From: Malacoraja senta
Taxonomy: Eukaryota
NCBI GenBank assembly: GCA_038087875.1
Contig: CM075988.1
Coordinates: forward strand, 24,368,001 to 24,432,000
Reading direction: 5' to 3'
Length of the DNA stretch: 64,000 bases
Positions 7,001 to 62,761 of this stretch are shown piece by piece. Under the pieces are notes generated by a model. The model saw nothing but the letters and a program-made list of their open reading frames with translations, was not told the DNA's origin and ran no database searches. The first letter of the stretch is position 1; every line of letters starts with the position of its first letter. The translations under genes and the position numbers were made by a program.

Positions 7001-7291
7001 TTTAGACTTTAGAGATACAGCGCAGAAATAGGCCCATCGGCCCACCAAGCCTGTGCTGACTAGCGATCACCCTGCTTACCAACACCATCCTGCACACTAG
7101 GGGACAATTTACAGAAGTCAATTAACCTACAAACCAGTACGTCTTTGGAGTGTGGGAGGAAACTGGAGTGCCCGGAGAAAACCCACGCAGTCACAGGGAG
7201 AACGTGCAAACTCTGCACAGACCGCACCCGTAGATCCCGGGTGTCTGGCGCCGTGACGCAGTAACTCTACCGCTGCAACACTGTGCCGCCC
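7001..7291 (-). mobile_element. V-SINE (HE1-like)
   Basis: Reverse complement of the same head, V-domain and tail. Confidence 0.85.
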
Positions 7292-8989
7292 TAAATACCC
7301 ATCGCATGCATATTCCCGGAATCCTCGCATCTTTCTTCTCAACTTACACTCCAATCCCTCCAAAACCAATATATCCCAGAATTGCTCACATACTGCAGGG
7401 ATAAATGTTGTGTTTCCCTCCACAGATGCTGCCTGACCCGCTGAGTTCTTCCAGCAGTTTATATTTTTTTTGCTGGGTATTTTATCGGCCTGTTGCAACA
7501 ACTCGTACCATCTTTTACATTTCTCCGGGAACAAGTGCCAGGATTCCACCAGCCTTTCTGATGCTAATTCCAACTGTTAAATTTAATTCCCATTGTTAAA
7601 GAGAATGATTATTCCAGTTAGTGAGGTAAGGTTAATGGTTCAACAGTTCAACTGAACTGTTCTGTATTTTTGTGTACAATACTGTGTTGTGCTGCAGCAA
7701 GCAAGAATTTCATTGTCCTATCTGGGACACATGACGATAAACTCTCTTGACTTGAGATTGCGCACACTAGGTTCGTACACCCTGGAAACACAGAAGGTCA
7801 ATGATTAATGATTTCAATGTGTTAAGGGAAGTGGGAAGGGACAGGGAGGGAAATCTTTGCACTGGAATGGGGGCAAGCTATGCAAATAGAGCTTGTTGCT
7901 TAACGTTGTACACACATAATGTCCCAGAGTTTGGAGGTTTTTTCCCCACACACAAATGGCTATTAATGCCAGATCATTTAACATCGAAAAGTGAATAATT
8001 ATCGTAGCTGAGTGTTCAAGATTTATGGGCCAGAGATGAGTGTATCGAGTAATGTTACATGCCTGCCCTGGTGCCTCAGAGTGATGGTGCGGGTGGGAGA
8101 GAGCTGATACTGTCGCTCTCTATTGCCCTGTTACAACCCAGCTGCCCATCACTAATTAATTGATGATACAGCTACTGTTACTCAATAGGACAATCAAAAT
8201 ACCACTCACTCATTACGCTGCGTTACACTCACCTTAGCTCTCTGAATTCCGTGTGTGTCACCATATCATGTTCTGGGCCAAAGCTAATTATGGGTGTTAC
8301 CATTAACCTTACCTCACTAACTGCAATAATCATTCTCTTGTTTATTATTTCTCAGTCTGTCTCCCCCCCTCTGTCCTTCCCCTCCCTCTCTCCTATCTTC
8401 TCCTATCTCATCCTTCCCCACTCATTTTGACTCACCCTCCCCTCGTTCTGTCCTTTGAATTTCCTATTTTTTCTAACTGTTTCCCGACTCCTCTGCCATC
8501 ACACAATCTTCCTCGTATTCCTCCTTTCAATGTTTCAATGATATTTTATTTCAATGACTCAAAGCTAATTATTGGGGTGTCACCATTTCTGTACCTCACT
8601 GACTGCAATAGTCATTCTCTTGTTCATCTATTTCTCAGTCTGTCTCCCCCTCTCTGTCCTTCCCCTCCCTATCTCACATCTTCTTTCCCTGCCTCATCCC
8701 TCCACACTCCTTTTCACTCACCCTTCCCCTCTTTCTCTCCTTTGGATCGCCTATATTTGTTCCCATTGTTCCCAACTCTGCTGCCCTCACACCGTCTTTC
8801 TCATATTCCTTCTCTCCTTTTGTAACCAAGAGAAGAGTCAAGAGTGTTTTGTTGTCCTGTGTCCCAGATAGAACAGTGACATCCTTACTTGCTGCAGCAC
8901 AACAGGTTATGTAAACATAGCACACTGCAAACAATATAATAAACAAGAAGAAAAACAAATCTTTATCTCATTTCTCCCACTTTCTCTCT

Positions 8990-9450
8990 ATGTTTAGTTT
9001 AGTTTAGTTTAGAGATACAGTGCGGAAACAGGCCCTTCGGCCCGAGTCCGCACACACCAGCGATCCCCCGCACATTAACACTATCCTACACACACTAGGG
9101 ACAATTTACACTTACACCAAGCCAATTTCAGGGGTTTCAAGAGAGAGTTAGATTTCGCTCTTAGGCCTGAAGGAATCAAGGGATTATGGGGAAAAATCCG
9201 AAACAGAATACTGAATTTGGATGGTCGCTATGATCATATTGAATGGCGGTGTTGGCTCGAAGGGCTGAATGGCCCTCTCCTGCACCTATTTTCTATGTTT
9301 CTATGTTTTTAACCTACATACCTGTACGTCTTTGGAGTGTGGAAGGTAACGATGATCTCGGAGAAAACCCACGCAGGTCACGGGGAGAACGTACAAACTC
9401 CGTACAGATAGCACCCGTAGTCGGGAATGAACCGGGATCGCCAGGTTCAT
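8990..9450 (-). mobile_element. V-SINE split by a CR1 3' end (~9128-9309)
   Basis: SINE sequence breaks at CCAAGCCAATT and resumes at AACCTACATACCTGTACG. Confidence 0.85.
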
Positions 9451-9969
9451 GTAAAGGGTCGTGTAAAGGGTCAAGGGTTTGTGTCATGTTGGTGCAAAGG
9501 GTCTTGGTTACATCTCCTCCCCTCCTGCCTCAGTGCCTGAATGATTGTATCGGACCTGTTTCTCATCTTGCCTGTCCTATGGACCTAGACCTCCCAGGTC
9601 CACCAGATGTTCCTCATCAAGTCACACTGTCACCCCTGGTCTCACAGTAATCACAGCCTGTTGACAGCCTGAATTCCTTGCATCGTAGATACACTACCAG
9701 AGAGAAGCTGAAGTGATAATGAAAGAGTGACTCACCACTCTCACTTTGTGAGGTTTTCAACTCGATTATCTCCTCATAGCACAGAAAATAAAGTGTATTG
9801 GTTTGGTTAATTGGCTTATTCTTGTCACATGTAGCAAGATGCGGTGAAAAACCTTGTTTTGCTTGCTATCCAGGTAACCCAAACACATGATTACAATTAA
9901 ATCACACACAACTACAATGGGTAGTACAAAATGAGAGTGCAGAATATAATGTCATATCTACAGAGAAAG

Positions 9970-10328
9970 TCTTTAGATTTTAGAGATACAGCGCAGAAAC
10001 TGGTCCTTTGCTCCACTGAGTCTGTGCCGGCCAGCGATCCCCGTACATTAACAATATCCCTCGACAATTTACAATTTTACCGGAGCCAATCAACCTACAA
10101 ACCTGAAATGCTGGAGTAACTCAGCGGGACAGGCGGCATCTCTGGAGAGAAGGAACGGGTGACGTTTCGGGTCGAGACCCTTCTTCATTTTGTGTCTACC
10201 TTCGATTTAAACCAGCATCTGCAATTCTAAACTACAAACCTGTATGTCTTTGCACCTGCAGCCAGGATCGAACCCGGGTCTCTGGAGCTGTAGATCAACA
10301 ACTCTGCCTCTGCGCCACCGTGCTGCCC
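9970..10328 (-). mobile_element. V-SINE split by a PLE insertion (10106-10231)
   Basis: CTACAAACCTG duplicated at 10095-10105 and 10232-10242. Confidence 0.85.
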
Positions 10329-28911: not shown

Positions 28912-31688
28912 CACATGGACAGCCCAACTCTCTTTGTCACTTCATGTTTTTTTTCTTCTTTTTTCTTCTGTCTGCACTTGCTGGTTGTCATCTCATTGTC
29001 ACCTTTTCATCTTTGCTCTGCACCTTATCACGGACATTCCCTCCATTTCCCACATCCATTCCCCTCTCTGTAAAACACATTGGGGTCAATAAAGAGATAC
29101 AATACAGAAACAGGTGCTTCGGCCCATCGACTCTATGCCAACAGTCTATACCCATTTACACTAATTCTACAATAGTCTCATTTATTACTCTTTCCACGTT
29201 CTTTTCAACCCGCCTCCCTCCCCTCCTGTCCTGTTACTCACCTGGACACCGGGGGCAATTTATGTGGCTAATTAACCTCCTGTCCCTTGTGAATTAGGAT
29301 GTCTGTGGCAGGAGACCGAAATCCTAAGGAAGCCCAAGTAATCACGGAACAAACATGCAAACTCCTCCTCGGTGTGTGACTGAAGTACCACAGACGTTAG
29401 GACTTTTGATCATGGATTGCGAGGCAGGGGATCGGGGAACTCTGCCAAGGTGACAAAGAGCGACAGGTGAGTGTCAGGACAAACTGTCTCTGGCTTATTG
29501 TCGAGGTTTGACACCTGATAATGGAAATTCTGACAATAATTAGGCTGGGAAATTGATATTTGAAATTTGGAGATTGAATGTGAGCCTGCTGTCTCCCGAG
29601 GGAAGGATCTGGCCTCACCGCTGAAATTGCTGCTGCATCTGCTGTCACCCTGTCCTGCAGCAGTCACCTTGTGGAGACTGAAAATCCCTCAAGTTGCTGG
29701 AGAATTTCACAGCCTGGATGGATGCTTGCCGACGATCGAAGGAGCTGCCGGATTCCAGAGATGGGCCCTGTGGCATCCCAGGGCTCTCTCCCCCACTTCC
29801 ACATTGGAGAATTATGGCTAGCCCCTCTTACATTTACAGTTGACCCACTGGACACTGTTGGTGGGTTTCATAGGAATGATCCCAGTGCGGAGTCTGGGGC
29901 TACACTAATGCCTCGGGGAGCAGTTATTAAGACAGAGAGGAGGGTTGACACACACACACCCAAACTCTGACATCGGGGCAAACATTCAGAGTGTCGGACA
30001 CCAGGATATCATAAGGTCATAAGTGATAGGAGCAGAATTAGGCCATTCGGCCCATTTACTCCGCCATTCAATCATGGCTGATCTATCTCTTCCTCCTATC
30101 TAGGTTCTCCTGCCTTCTCCCCATAACCCTCAACGCCCGTACTAATAAAGAATCTATCTATATCTGCCTTAAAAATATCCAAGATTTCCAAAAATACCTT
30201 CAGCCTCTCCAGAAATGGAAGATCATTGCATACAATTCTTTGTTATAACTTTCTTTTTGAATATGACCATAAGAAACACGGCCAAGAGTAGATCCAAGAC
30301 AGACATCCTCTAAGGAAGAGTCTCGACTGGTCTTCATCTTTGGTGTAAACCAGCATCTGCAACTCCTTCCTACACAAGAGAAGATCTTTGAGTTAGATAG
30401 AGCTCTAGGGGCTAGAGGAATCAAGGGATATGGGGAGAAGGTAGGCACGGGTTACTGATTGTGGATGATCAGCCATGATCACAATAAATGGCGGTGCAGG
30501 CTAGAAGGGCCAAATTCCTGCACCTATTTTCTTTGTTTCTATGTTTCTAAGATGATCTGACCCTCCTCATTGCAGCACTCGAAACTCTATCCATCCCCGT
30601 GTTGAATAGACTCCCTGACAGAGAATTCCAAAGGGTCACAATTCCCAGAGTGAAAACCGTTTTTTTTTCCTCATCTCAGTCCGAAATGCCGTCCCGTTCT
30701 CCTGAAGCCGTGATCACAGATTTGGATTCTAATTTTCAATGAATCTTGTATTTTCAAATAGAAGATCTTGTTTTCCTCTCAACTCCAGAGACCGTGAGCC
30801 CCTCTGCTCTGTCTCTTCCTACGTCACCTCACTCATTGCAGGAATCAATTTGGAGAGCCCTTATCCACCACCCAAGGGAAATCTATCCTTGCTAAGGCAA
30901 GTAGATCAAAACTGTGCACAGTATTCCAACACAGGATCTACAGTGGACAATTCTCAGTGCAACCTTGTCCTACTTTTTCAAGATTTGTTGAGAATATTTT
31001 GATTTTAGAAGCAAATTAATAGCCTCTCTTTTCCCCTTCAACTTAAAGTTAATAATTTTATTAGAGAAAAATGCATCCAGCTGAGTTCCCACACTATTCT
31101 CTCTGGGTCAGGATCAATGGGAAATATAATTGATGTTCCGCTGTGTGTGTGTGTAAATTAAAAGAAAAATGTATTTAAAGGTATTCCGTTGAGATAGAAC
31201 AAAGTGCCAAGATCAAACAAAGTATACAGCGATTATAAGACCTAATTAGGGCAAGGAGAAAAATGAAATCAGGTGAGATGAAGAGGGAAGGGTGAATAAA
31301 GACTGACATCATCGACCAGACGGACTGAAGGGCTTCCTCATGTTGATGATGTTGATATTTTATTGTCACATGTACCCAGGTGCAGTGAAACTATTTGTAT
31401 TTGCACACAAAGTACACAAAAGAGACGCCACAAAATTACAAAAAGTACTCTTTTTCAGTACAGTGCATTACTTTCTCTGAAGATGTGTATTTCAGGATCG
31501 CTTCGCCCCAAAGAGATTTAAGGGCAATGGCAGTCGCACTCCCACTCTCTCGCTGAAATGGTGTCGGTTGACTATGTTGAGTTTAGGAAGGAACTGCAGA
31601 TGCTGGAATATCGAAGGTAGACAAAAGTGCTGGAGAAACTCAGCGGGTGCAGCAGCATCTATGGAGCGAAGGAAATATTCCTGCACAT

Positions 31689-31818
31689 TCTTCTTCTTGT
31701 GTATAGCGTGCACAGCCTAAAGTTGTAGGACAACTTGTTCTGTTTGATCTTATTTGATTGTGCAAACCAGGTTGATTGCATTCATCAAAACAGGGCGGAG
31801 GTTGCAATCTCCCACCCC
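31689..31818 (-). mobile_element. Second copy of the ribozyme-headed short retroposon with ~9-nt deletion in P3/L3, inserted in a V-SINE
   Basis: Aligns by eye to 56282-56424 but lacks the CCACGTGTA segment; degenerate TSD CTGCACAT/CCGAACAT. Confidence 0.75.
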
Positions 31819-55050: not shown

Positions 55051-56281
55051 AATTTCCTGCATTTTTCCTGCAAATCCTGCAGATGTTCCCTCAAAGGCAA
55101 GACGGGGAAAGCAGAATGAATGAACTAGGCTTTTCCCCAGGCATTATCCAACTATATGACCAGCTGCAGGTTAAGGTGCTGGTCCACCTTAACCTGATCA
55201 GCGTTGTCCACTGAGATAGATAGATTCTTGATTAGTACGGGTGTCAGAGGATATGGGGAGAAGGCGGGAGAATGGGGTTAGGAGGGAGAGATAGATCAGC
55301 CGTGATTGAATGGCGGAGTAAACCTGATGGGCCGAATGGCCTAACTCTACTCCTATCACATTTATGATCTTATGATGATCAAAGGGGACAAAGATCAAGG
55401 AGAATGTAGAATGGATCATTGTTAGATGAGGGGACTTGGAAGGTCAGCTGCTGAGGACTGAGGCACCGCCATTCCTCCGCTCATCACTTGCTTTATCATT
55501 ACGAAAGAACTGCAGATGCTGGTTTGAACCAAAGGTAGACACAAAATGCTGGAGTAACTCAGCGGGTCAGGCAGCATCTCTGGAGAGAAGGAATGGATGA
55601 AGTTTCTGGTCGAGACCCTTCTTCAGACTGAAGAAACATCACCCATTCCATCTGTTCAGAGATGCTGCCTGTCCCAGAGTTACTCCAGCATTTTGTGTCT
55701 AACTTGTTTTTTATCAATGCTGATATTTAACTGCCACAGGGTGGATGGGGGGATGTTACAAACTGATGCCTGGCCATTTGTGAAGAGGTGAAATTTGCAT
55801 GGTGATACTGAGATTTACAGCAATGACAAGCTGAACGAGACTTGAATCCTCGCTGAGCTCAAAGATCCGACTTCCCATGATTTACCATTTGAACCATGTT
55901 CGGGGTGTTTAATATTCAACGCTCGAAATGGCAAACATGTCCACACATCTCCTCCTCCTCGCAAAAGATAGACCTGTGAATGTCCGGGTTAATTTAGCTC
56001 AAGCTGTCCTTTGGTATTCTTTCATCTGTGCAAAACAAGCTGTTCCCTCCAGCCGCCTGTCACTGGCAGTTTATGCTGTCTGTTGCCCAGCTGTATATTA
56101 ACCATGGTCTTGCTGCCCTGGCGACTAATGATATCAAAGCAAAAACAGCTTGCTCTTGCTCATGATACCCCCTCTTCCATCTTCCTTTCTTCTGCTCTGT
56201 CTCCTGTTTCTTTATAAAGCTTGCTGGTCCCCCTAACTCAAACCCAATGGCTCAATCATCTTGGGATCACTCTGCCCATAG

Positions 56282-56424
56282 TTCTTCTTATTCTTGCGTA
56301 TGGCGTGCACAGCCTAAAGTTGGAGGACAACTTGTTCGGTTTGATCTTATTTGAGTGTGCACGCCAGGTTGATTGCATTAGTCGAAACAGGGCAGACCAC
56401 GTGTAGGTTGCAATCTCCCACCCC
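56282..56424 (-). mobile_element. Short non-autonomous retroposon with HDV-like ribozyme head and Vingi-type tail
   Basis: Minus strand GGGGTGGGAGATTGCAACC...GTGCACGCCATACGCAAGAATAAGAAGAA; flanked by direct repeat CCCATAG (56275-56281, 56425-56431); second copy at 31689-31818. Confidence 0.8.
56371..56424 (-). ncRNA. Predicted HDV-like self-cleaving ribozyme, minimal, P4 essentially absent
   Basis: Manual fold: P1 GGGGUGG/CUGCCCU with G1-U wobble, P2 GAUUGCA/UGCAAUC, P3 ACC/GGU, L3 UACACGU, P1.1 AC/GU, J4/2 CUAA holding the candidate catalytic C. Confidence 0.75.
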
Positions 56425-56639
56425 CCCATAGATAGGTGAATGTGATGCATGTCAAATCTATTCTAATCGCATTTGCCTGTGGCAAAGGGTGGGAGAAATT
56501 TAAAGTGACGTCTATCAACTCTCTCAAGTGCTGTCACATTCTGATGTTAACCTTATCTCTGAGGAGGATATTAGCCGGAAGGATCCTATCACATATATGG
56601 AGGGAGGCCAATGTCCCATAATGTCATCTTGCTGAAAGT

Positions 56640-61153: not shown

Positions 61154-62761
61154 CAGTGGCTTGCAAAAGTATTCATACCCCTTGAACTTTTCCACATTTT
61201 GTCACGTTACAACCACAAACGTAAATGTATTTTATTGGGATTTTATGTGATAGACCAACACAAAGTGGCGCATAATTGTGAAGTGGAAGGAAAATGATAC
61301 ATGGTTTTCAAATTGTTTTACTAATAAAAAACTGAAAAGTGTCTCAGTGCAAAAGTATTCAGCCCCCTTTACTCTGATACCCCTAAATAAAATCCAGTGC
61401 AACCAATTGCCTTCAGAAGTCACCTAATTAGTAAATAGAGTGCACTTGTGTGTAATCTAATCTCAGTATAAATACAGCTGTTCTGTGAAGGCCTCAGAGG
61501 TTTGTTAGAGAACATTAGTGAACAAACAGCATCATGAAGCCCAAGGAACACACCAGACAGGTCAGGGATAAAGTTGTGGAGAAGTTTAAAGCAGGGTTAG
61601 GTTATAAACAAATATCCCAAGCTTTGAACATCTCACGGAGCACTGTTCAATCCATCATCTGAAAATGGAAAAAGTATGGCACAACTTTAACCCTACCAAG
61701 TCATGGCCGTCCACCTAAACTAACAGGCCGGGCAAGGAGAGCATTGATCAGAGAAGCAGCCATGGTAACTCTGGAGGAGCTGCAGAGATCCACAGCTCAG
61801 GTGGGAGAATCTGTCCACAGGACAACTATTAGTCGTGCACTCCACAAATCGGGCCTTTATGGAAGAGTGGCAAGAAGAAAGCCATTGTTGAAAAAAAGCC
61901 ATAAGAAGTCCCGTTTGCAGTTTGCCACAAGCCATGTGGGGGACACAGCAAACATGTGGAGGAAGGTGCTCTGGTCAGATGAGACCAAAATTGAAGTTTT
62001 TGGCCTAAATGCAAAACGCTATGTGTGGCGGAAACCTAACTCTGCACATCACCCTGAACACACCATCCCCACTGTGAAACATGGTGGTGGCAGCATCATG
62101 CTGTGGGGATGCTTTTCTTCAGCAGGTACAGGGAAGCTGGTCAGAGTTGATGGGAAGATGGATGGAGCCAAATACAGGGCAATCTTGGAAGAAAACCTGT
62201 TAGAGTCTGCAAAAGACTTGAGACTGGGACGGAGGTTCACCTTCCAGCAGGACAACGACCCTAAACATACAGCCAGAGCTACAATGGAATGGTTTAGATC
62301 AAAGCATATTCATGTGTTAGAATGGCCCAGTCAAAGTCCAGACCTAAATCCAATTGAGAATCTCTGGCAAGACTTGACAATTGCTGTTCACAGACGCTCT
62401 CCATCCAATCTGACTGAGCTTGAGCTATTTTGCAAAGAAGAATGGGCAAAAATTTCAGTCTCTGGATGTGCAAAGCTGGTAGAGACATACCCCAAAAGAC
62501 TTGCAGCTGTAATTGCAGCGAAAGGTGGTTCTACAAAGTATTGACTCAGGGGGCCTGAATACTTTTGCACGCGACACTTTTCAGTTTTTTATTTGTAAAA
62601 AAATTTGAAATCCATGTATCATTTTCCTTCCACTTCACAATTATGCACCACTTTGTGTTGGTCTATCACATAAAATCCCAATAAAATACATTTACGTTTG
62701 TGGTTGTAACGTGACAAAATGTGGAAAAGTTCAAGGGGTATGAATACTTTGCAAGCCGCTG
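61154..62761 (+). mobile_element. Full-length Tc1/mariner DNA transposon, IR/DR type, Passport-like
   Basis: TIRs of ~213 bp (CAGTGGCTTGCAAAAGTATTCATACCCC...GGGGTATGAATACTTTGCAAGCCGCTG); TA at both flanks (61152-61153, 62762-62763); motif TGCAAAAGTATTCA at the outer and inner ends of the left TIR; 1.6 kb long; contains a transposase frame. Confidence 0.97.
61534..62544 (+). pseudogene. Tc1 DD34E transposase with one premature stop
   Basis: ATG at 61534 (MKPKEHTRQVRDKVVEKFKAGLGYKQIS...) is in frame with track ORF 61744-62544; TGA at 61660-61662 (codon 43); motifs GRPPK, ARRKPLL, WSDETK, FQQDNDPKH, SPDLNPIENLW, with 34 residues between the second D and the E. Confidence 0.95.

Follow-up and report, generated by a model that had tools for sequence, protein, structure and literature searches.

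The 64,000-nt stretch of Malacoraja senta DNA analysed here (contig CM075988.1, positions 24,368,001 to 24,432,000 of the forward strand; hereafter the window) carries on its minus strand, at 56282..56424, a 143-nt element that is very probably a short retroposon headed by a hepatitis delta virus (HDV)-like ribozyme without the paired region P4, an RNA that, judging from its sequence and relatives, would trim its own 5' end and be copied by a long interspersed element (LINE). We named the family to which it belongs family S. The RNA of this family consists of three modules, a 54-nt P4-less head, a stem-loop body and an ACGC(AAG)n 3' end, and the window element itself is best read as an old, fixed copy of a 143-nt non-autonomous retroposon of the type without long terminal repeats (non-LTR).

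Read on the minus strand from 56424 to 56282, the element is flanked on each side by the 7-bp direct repeat CTATGGG, with the upstream copy at 56425..56431 and the downstream copy at 56275..56281; other copies of the family carry other duplications of 7-13 bp. Directly after the upstream CTATGGG the 5' end reads GGGGTGGGAGATTGCAACCTACACGTGGTCTGCCCTGTTTCGACTAATGCAATC, the element opening at 56424 with GGGGTGGGAGATTGCAACC and closing at 56282 with CATACGCAAGAATAAGAAGAA. The original prediction, made by reading the letters of the window only, had proposed a 143-nt element between 7-bp target-site duplications (TSDs), and both the coordinates and the duplication proved correct. It had also described a 10-bp stem in the body. 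This stem is real and extends to 11 bp in the minimum free energy (MFE) fold, in which nt 59-69 pair with nt 114-124 around about 44 nt (56301..56366) at a stability that none of 200 shuffles equalled (z = -3.25). The 3' end, as judged from the sequence and from the family copies, is a UACGC(AAG)n-like tail, here AAGAAUAAGAAGAA (56282..56300). In agreement with the earlier claim that Pol III boxes and an open reading frame (ORF) are absent, we found no ORF in the 143 nt, no tRNA in the element using ARAGORN, and no Rfam match to tRNA, 5S, 7SL or small nuclear RNA (snRNA) families at E <= 10 in a 701-nt scan, which returned just three matches, to microRNAs and small nucleolar RNAs, at chance level. 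We thus found in the element no small-RNA-derived head with internal promoter boxes, which marks a classical short interspersed element, and it shows the features of a LINE-dependent retroposon: it is ORF-less, is bounded by TSDs, has a LINE-type tail and occurs in many dispersed copies.

The first 54 nt of the element (56371..56424) constitute the P4-less, CPEB3-type ribozyme candidate, with a predicted cut 5' of G1 at position 56424; a structural descriptor, the Rfam model RF02682 and covariation all point to this assignment. In numbering from G1, the 5' strand of P1 (nt 1-7, GGGGUGG; 56418..56424) pairs with nt 30-36 (56389..56395), which read CUGCCCU here and CCGCCCU in the 61-copy family alignment, giving a 7-bp helix that starts with the G1-U36 pair. 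The junction J1/2 (nt 8-9) leads into P2, in which GAUUGCA (nt 10-16; 56409..56415) forms seven perfect pairs with UGCAAUC (nt 48-54; 56371..56377). P3, ACC/GGU (nt 17-19 with nt 27-29), encloses the loop L3 within 56396..56408; L3 (nt 20-26) is UACACGU in the window copy and UUCACGU in family S, the latter being the Rfam CPEB3 consensus. After P1 come G37 and U38 (56387..56388), the partners in P1.1 (pairs 22-37 and 21-38), then a 5-nt linker, UUCGA (nt 39-43; 56382..56386), that replaces P4, and finally J4/2 (nt 44-47; 56378..56381), which is CUAA here, contains C44 as the candidate catalytic cytosine and aligns to the J4/2 segments of both RF02682 and RF00622.

This arrangement is the nested double pseudoknot of the HDV-like class, with P1 and P2 crossing, P3 inside P1, and P1.1. 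The predicted cleavage site lies 5' of G1 in a G-U wobble closing P1, and a C-N-R-A type J4/2 precedes the P2 3' strand and is accompanied by a U...G pocket in L3, the catalytic role of these elements being predicted. The P4 hairpin of many class members is missing, with UUCGA in its place; P4 is not required for membership of the class (PMC10879173). All of the P1, P2, P3, L3 and J4/2 features that had been proposed are thus present in the window copy. The proposed P1.1 (AC/GU) and the CUAA of J4/2 hold for this copy as well, but A21 and U45, on which they depend, are minority states in the family: of the 61 copies in the alignment, 59 have T and 2 have A at position 21, and at position 45 there are 49 with G, 7 with T and 5 with A. 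The fold permits both states, A21 giving an A-U second P1.1 pair where the family has U/U. Retention of the core in the 61 copies is high (U20 in 60, C22 in 59, G25 in 53, G37 in 58, C44 in 58 and A46 in all 61), and G1 and U36 are kept in 56 and 57 copies, respectively. Variant frequencies calculated from summed contig depth were set aside, as they give no value for position 21 and conflict, at position 45, with the 61 aligned copies.

We scanned both strands of the window with a descriptor comprising a 7-bp P1 with a G-U first pair, a J1/2 of 0-5 nt, a P2 of 6-8 bp, a 3-bp P3, an L3 of 7-8 nt reading U.C..G, a G after P1, a spacer of 3-80 nt, CNRA and the P2 3' strand. It matched 56424..56371 only and had no match in 206 dinucleotide shuffles (26.4 Mb), a zero that is an upper bound on chance and not an unbiased P value, since the descriptor was composed after the site had been seen. 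For the head, the nested MFE does not stand out from shuffled sequence (z = +0.61, with 145 of 200 shuffles equally stable), but a nested-fold program cannot score pseudoknots and this value is therefore uninformative on the structure proposed here.

Rfam gave no match on the whole window at gathering thresholds, because, to detect the family S head, its models require a P4 as well as a small search space. When 66 nt of the window copy were scanned against 4,227 Rfam families, the single match was to RF02682 (the F. prausnitzii HDV ribozyme), over the full model and exactly at 56424..56371, with 12.6 bits and E 1.4. The same 66-nt search of a consensus-like copy (L015) returned RF02682 at 14.4 bits and RF00622, the mammalian CPEB3 ribozyme, at 11 bits, together with an unrelated third match that reflects the P2 helix only. 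Ribozyme matches on the 66-nt stretch are to HDV-like models only, and they fall, weak as they are (11-14 bits), in the register that had been claimed. These scores are not significant alone, but the alignment is nonetheless telling at the level of sequence. L3 UUCACGU, the following CCCUGU and the J4/2 segment CGAAU of family S are identical to the CPEB3 consensus. In a nuclear magnetic resonance study the CPEB3 core has been described as U20, C22, A23 and G25, with a P1.1 of one G-C and one U-U pair and a 4-nt J4/2 starting with the catalytic C (PMC4836649), and the family S consensus equals this description position by position through nt 38. The family carries the identifying core features of CPEB3 (L3 UUCACGU, P1.1 of G-C plus U-U, J4/2 CGAA), from which the window copy deviates at nt 21 and 45. 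By score, family S falls outside RF00622, whose gathering score is 35 bits: the consensus-like copy reaches 11 bits and the window copy is unmatched at E <= 10.

Family S is abundant in the genome, which measures 1.94 Gb. A whole-element search returned 1,398 first-look candidates, and all 40 copies that were scored span position 1 to position 140-143 at 94-100% identity. An exhaustive pattern count with the 28-nt start of the family sequence gave 2,514 exact matches, compared with none for the reversed control; this number is a lower bound for the family, as it includes only copies with an intact 28-nt head. The copies are dispersed over all large contigs, and the 61 aligned ones diverge by about 4% from their consensus. 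All 30 copies that were fetched start at G1, have unrelated upstream flanks and carry an (AAG)n tail and their own 7-13-bp TSDs. Since these had been retrieved with the whole element, we collected a second set of 30 loci by the tail alone, and here the match begins at position 1 in 25, at position 2 in three and at position 12-13 in two. The 5' ends of the family thus stack at G1, and together with the Rfam register and the covariation described below these boundaries support the original proposal that the first base of the element is position 1 of a compact HDV-like ribozyme.

Public sequencing data gave a similar picture. In four DNA-like runs (coded organisms A-D), 7,264-10,209 pieces per run fall on the element, and 115-246 contigs per run pass into unlike sequence exactly at 56424, with an agreement of the loose-end consensus of just 0.33-0.36, indicating that the flanks are random. 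In run X3 a single contig (56150-56347) spans the flank together with 66 nt of the element, from which it follows that the insertion is present at the same site in organism B too; in the other runs contigs enter the element by 14-30 nt, under the tool's bridging criterion.

The base directly before the family S element, which is the last base of the TSD, is T in 1,409 of the 2,514 copies (56%; for example L004, L010, L013 and L015). T also precedes 16 of 20 parsed family E copies (L090 and L092 among them) and 4 of 8 LINE A copies, both of which are introduced below. Either the enzyme has a preference at the junction or target, or the T pairs with a single untemplated A at the end of the cDNA. 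About 30 family S copies share the same 18-nt deletion (GCAATC joined to AAATAAGATC; for example at G000:C1:31737620 and C2:59635429), which removes the 5' arm of the body stem. Either this marks a subfamily that transposes, in which case the body stem would be dispensable, or slippage between short repeats has occurred more than once. Several family S and family F copies have a very common repeat with the end ...GATCAGCCATGATCA..TGAATGGCGGTGCTGGCTCGAAGGGCCGAATGGCCTACTCCTGCACCTAT beside or inside them (L038, L075 and the flanks of L006, L023, L025 and L215), and S often lies within it.

Our analysis further revealed that the genome contains sister families with much stronger CPEB3-type heads. 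RF00622 gave 60 matches, 39 of them at or above the 35-bit gathering score and the best at 64.2 bits (E 2.7e-14). We fetched 51 and sorted them by eye into five families, A to E, with one copy left outside them. Family A (12 copies) has a head with P4 followed by an ORF and is referred to as LINE A; family B (5 copies) has a long P4 and the J4/2 CUAA; family C (5 copies) has the L3 UUCUCGU and P1, P2 and P4 helices near those of mammalian CPEB3; family D (6 copies) has a head with P4. Family E (22 copies) is again a P4-less, short, ORF-less retroposon. It ends in GGAYTCGATAAGAAG, carries a UUYCA-type linker at the position of the UUCGA of family S, and has its own TSDs in both copies read through (L090, about 175 nt; L092, about 150 nt). 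In families A-E the sequence 5' of the first G differs from copy to copy, meaning that the heads stand at the 5' ends of the elements. Since these families score 36-64 bits with RF00622 and family S remains below threshold, family S is a divergent relative and not a model-level member. A further family, F, was found using RF02682 at 32-37 bits, under that model's gathering score. It is ORF-less and about 190-205 nt long in the three copies read (L214, L215 and L216), two of which have TSDs, and it has a P4, a P3 of ACC/GGU like that of S and an end motif, ACGCAAGAAG, identical to that of S; on the 3' side, family F may stand nearest to S.

For covariation we aligned 15 heads drawn from five families (S, A, B, D and E), an alignment that is gap-free apart from P4. 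In the drawn structure 90.8% of the cells are paired, compared with 40-51% when the partner is slid by 1-3 columns; because rows were picked after a pairing filter, this percentage is inflated, which does not apply to the compensatory changes between families. Changes on both sides affect 11 of 19 pairs (6/7 in P2, 3/7 in P1 and 2/3 in P3), and the covariation score of 0.574 was reached by none of 500 shuffles (0.187 +/- 0.025). L3, the C22-G37 pair (15 of 15 heads) and C44, A46 and A47 are invariant. The helices of S, A, D and E differ almost wholly in sequence, and each element starts at the same structural position. The covariation of P1 to P3 that the ribozyme proposal implies is therefore found in all three helices among sister families of one genome.

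LINE A provides an autonomous element of the same plan. Its one complete copy (L083 together with the adjoining L093) is about 3.1 kb long, with the ribozyme at its first bases and an ATG about 40 nt further on. The frame spans 940 aa and contains Exo_endo_phos_2 and RVT_1 domains without an RNase H; it is interrupted by one in-frame TGA, after which 88 further codons follow, including a Cys/His knuckle. The copy ends in ...CAAAGACACGAAAAGAAGAAGAAG with an (AAG)n tail and is flanked by the 11-bp TSD ACAGAACAAAA. In the genome we counted 7 exact copies of the 28-nt head and 213 copies of the 3' end (<=2 mismatches) of LINE A, with head and tail about 3.1 kb apart at at least four loci, as is typical of a LINE that is young and mostly truncated at its 5' end. 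At one locus, L099 (G000:C8:937575-937738), the LINE A 5' end shows partial tandem P2-P3-L3 repeats before the complete ribozyme. S, LINE A, E and F have in common the kind of head, an (AAG)n end after a CG-containing motif (ACGAAAAGAAGAAG in LINE A versus ACGCAAGAAG in S and F) and the size of the duplication. LINE A-like coding sequence was absent from the first 400 nt 3' of the heads of families B, C and D (in family C, L087 and L089 were tested) and, by tblastn of the LINE A protein, from the 64-kb window.

The LINE A protein has 488 relatives at E <= 1e-10, 900-1,000 aa in length, of which many lie on 3.0-3.3-kb contigs; those with names belong to lancelet, sea urchins, insects, fishes and Anolis and share 49-55% identity with it. 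RTE elements share the compact architecture of LINE A, a single ORF encoding an apurinic endonuclease (APE) and a reverse transcriptase (RT). The same architecture without RNase H is also that of Vingi elements (PMC13708176), of which Vingi-2_Gav is listed at 3,128 bp (PMC5786205), and it is found in LINE A. It is plausible from these sequence comparisons that LINE A is a Vingi: the homologue taxa are suggestive, and the architecture fits RTE nearly as well. Among 80 metagenome loci encoding relatives of the LINE A protein, we scanned 20 that include a 5' region for ribozymes. One 3,101-nt contig (L140, 54% protein identity) matched RF00622 with 43.3 bits at nt 5-84, L141 and L137 reached about 31 bits, and RF02682 matched L158 (38% identity) and L143 (49%) ahead of the ORF, with about 40 bits each. 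No ribozyme was found at E <= 0.01 in the remaining 15; several of these contigs may end short of the 5' end. The head is hence a feature of the LINE A group in more than one organism.

Whether a LINE shares sequence with family S itself was addressed by five exhaustive exclusion-pattern searches of the genome, which combined the ribozyme 3' end with foreign downstream sequence, foreign upstream sequence with the S body, or foreign upstream sequence with the tail, and gave 9, 11, 38, 21 and 108 matches, with about 7 chance matches expected in the last. Nearly all of the 58 matches that were fetched and aligned are S copies with deletions, indels or inserted repeats, and most of 129 further ones look, from the matched sequence alone, like S copies carrying deletions. 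No LINE sharing the ribozyme sequence, body or tail-proximal sequence of S emerged from these searches, in which each filter passes unrelated flanking sequence with a probability of about 18-56%, so that a low-copy parent was possibly missed. Within that scope, no autonomous LINE of the genome was found whose 5' and 3' parts are identical or near-identical to those of family S. The original proposal that the element is copied by a Vingi RT is plausible, given that LINE A combines this type of head with an (AAG)n tail, but LINE A, a putative Vingi, shares no body or tail-proximal sequence with the element. We also considered the youngest LINE by intact frames, L081 (G000:C4692:226000-234500), as a partner and rejected it, as it is L1-like, with two ORFs and an A-rich end. 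L081 encodes an ORF1 of 341 aa and an ORF2 of 1,269 aa, and several genomic copies have an uninterrupted frame of 1,271 aa, so this LINE looks recently active.

Taken together, these data are consistent with a model in which a source copy of family S would be transcribed inside a longer host or read-through transcript. As its fold suggests, the head would then cleave 5' of G1 and leave an RNA that starts exactly at G1, with C44 of J4/2 as the putative general acid and a U20/G25 pocket predicted to hold Mg2+. The released RNA would be recognised via its 3' end and copied into new sites by target-primed reverse transcription, presumably by the RT of a compact single-ORF APE- and RT-encoding LINE A-type element of the same genome. 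The (AAG)n tail and the 7-13-bp duplication seen in the copies would be the outcome of this last step.

Several observations weigh against this model. Family S heads score just 11-14 bits (E about 0.6-1.4 in 66 nt), below the gathering thresholds, and the window copy is old and has three G-U pairs in P1. Non-CpG decay is alike in the head (2.4%) and the body (3.3%) of family S copies, implying no constraint within copies, as expected of dead copies. To our knowledge a CPEB3-type core without P4 has never been assayed. The post hoc descriptor, the filtered rows of the covariation alignment and the outcome of the search for a parent LINE belong on the same side of the balance.

An exact common 5' end would likewise result if the head were an internal DNA promoter, for Pol II or Pol III, that starts transcription at G1, with the ribozyme fold secondary or vestigial. 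In a mild form of this explanation the head would be promoter and ribozyme at once, as is Pr77/L1TcRz of L1Tc and NARTc, in which the same 77 nt have both functions (PMC3383444), and the TTCGA of the linker is faintly B box-like. However, the element shows no similarity to tRNA, 5S, 7SL or snRNA, and a promoter leaves unexplained why 11 of 19 pairs change in a compensatory manner with L3, P1.1 and J4/2 fixed, and why S, A, D and E keep the same structural start with nearly all of their helices different. We consider the promoter explanation unlikely. Slightly less probable again is that the head is a dead relic, a LINE-derived ribozyme inactivated by the loss of P4, family S having been spread by other causes and the common 5' end produced by an RT stop or a single master locus. 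P4 stabilises many HDV-like ribozymes and the S head is far under the Rfam thresholds, as this explanation would predict, but two independent P4-less families, S and E, have both been amplified with different helices and the same type of 5-nt linker, and every core position is intact in the family consensus. Moreover, P1, P2 and P3 of S differ from those of the sister families by compensated changes, which argues that the fold was retained after the lineages split, and P4-less HDV-like ribozymes are active in vitro (PMC10879173).

Least credible and, in our view, close to negligible is an explanation by chance, in which family S would be an ordinary repeat and the fit of its first 54 nt to the HDV-like structure accidental. 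The unremarkable nested MFE of the head and Rfam E values near 1 are what chance would give; against this, the descriptor found nothing in 26.4 Mb of shuffles, the fit begins precisely with base 1 of the element, the core equals that of CPEB3, sister families reach 36-64 bits with the curated CPEB3 model, and the helices covary across families. A self-trimming ribozyme head on a LINE-copied retroposon accordingly remains the reading that we favour.

Since 2010-2012 it has been known that non-LTR retrotransposons, and short elements derived from them, can carry HDV-like ribozymes at their 5' ends. A ribozyme-headed short retroposon is hence already known in principle and the variant is new. L1Tc and NARTc have poly(A) tails, not (AAG)n. 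NARTc, the counterpart of L1Tc in Trypanosoma cruzi (Ingi clade), resembles family S as a short ORF-less derivative headed by an HDV-like ribozyme, and L1TcRz in Pr77 frees the 5' end from a co-transcript and stays on the mobile RNA (PMC3185411, PMC3383444, PMC4035085). NARTc differs in being an internal-deletion copy that shares the 5' and 3' sequence of L1Tc, whereas S and LINE A have only the module type and the (AAG)n end in common; the S head is 54 nt long, P4-less and found in an animal-type 1.9-Gb genome, compared with 77 nt for L1TcRz. R2 SIDEs (short internally deleted elements) are non-autonomous too and combine a 5' HDV-like ribozyme with a 3' end for target-primed reverse transcription, but they are site-specific in 28S ribosomal DNA and rely on rRNA co-transcription (PMC3414825), in contrast to the dispersed S copies, numbering at least 2,514, with their variable TSDs. 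Vingi- and RTE-derived bipartite non-autonomous LINEs and SINE bodies are likewise short and keep the extreme 5' and 3' ends of a compact single-ORF LINE, and at about 3.1 kb LINE A is close in size to the 3,128 bp of Vingi-2_Gav (PMC5786205); unlike them, S is not a simple deletion derivative of LINE A.

With regard to the ribozyme itself, the mammalian CPEB3 ribozyme is single-copy and intronic and has a P4 hairpin. Family S shares with it equal segment lengths from nt 1 to 38, the L3 UUCACGU, the J4/2 CGAA (PMC4836649) and a P1.1 of C22-G37 plus a U/U pair, and differs in being a multicopy retroposon head with no P4, other P1, P2 and P3 sequences and a score of 11 bits. The minimal HDV-like ribozymes drz-Mtgn and theta are P4-less and of similar size; such ribozymes cleave in vitro (PMC10879173, citing Riccitelli 2014). 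They come from phages (the theta ribozymes from gut phages) and metagenomes and process tRNA 3' trailers, whereas the S head belongs to a eukaryotic retroposon and has a core of the CPEB3 type, and that work leaves the origin and eukaryotic occurrence of minimal HDV-like ribozymes undetermined (PMC10879173). In a literature search whose scope did not extend to Repbase, Dfam, subscription journals and patents, we found no link of Vingi to ribozymes and, judging by titles and the opening lines of abstracts, no report of CPEB3-type ribozymes in retroelements, and what was found on 'CPEB3-like' ribozymes or on HDV-like ribozymes in sharks was unrelated.

What is new is thus a P4-less minimal head on a eukaryotic retroposon with thousands of copies, and one plan, a ribozyme head with an (AAG)n tail, that occurs in one LINE and in at least three short ORF-less families (S, E and F). 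New, too, is that the core of a retroposon equals the mammalian CPEB3 core and that the curated CPEB3 model matches dozens of retroelement 5' ends in this genome. This wider result, a retroelement family with heads closely homologous to the mammalian CPEB3 ribozyme, may be the more valuable one. If LINE A is a Vingi, it would fill a gap noted by Kojima (2018), as Vingi has bipartite non-autonomous derivatives yet had no known ribozyme (PMC5786205). Compact LINEs of this kind are in development as gene-writing tools that need their 5' untranslated regions (PMC13708176).

The five family C copies (L087, L089, L101, L106 and L108) are dispersed and older, have heads of 43-51 bits with the mammalian CPEB3 model and share the downstream sequence CCACACACTG..ATTCATC. 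They have the P1 GGGGGCC and the P4 stem CAGAUUCU...GAAUCUG in common with mammalian CPEB3, and P2 is nearly the same. We give roughly even chances to the idea that the CPEB3 ribozyme of mammals arose by domestication of a 5' head from this retroelement lineage. If so, the single intronic CPEB3 ribozyme would be a fossil insertion of such an element, and family S would be a branch, lacking P4, of that ribozyme stock; extended further, this would mean that the compact APE- and RT-encoding, Vingi-like LINEs use HDV-like heads as a clade, for which we found none in the literature searched. The origin of CPEB3 becomes directly testable, along with the old idea linking CPEB3 and HDV.

The window holds a second, older family S copy on the minus strand at 31688..31818, in which L3 and part of P3 and P1 are deleted. 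Of 18 frames of at least 150 aa in the window, 16 were scanned for domains; none encodes an RT, and the sole find was a Tc1/mariner transposase with HTH_Tnp_Tc3_2 and DDE_3 domains, in an open frame of 293 aa on the plus strand (61663-62544) that looks largely intact.

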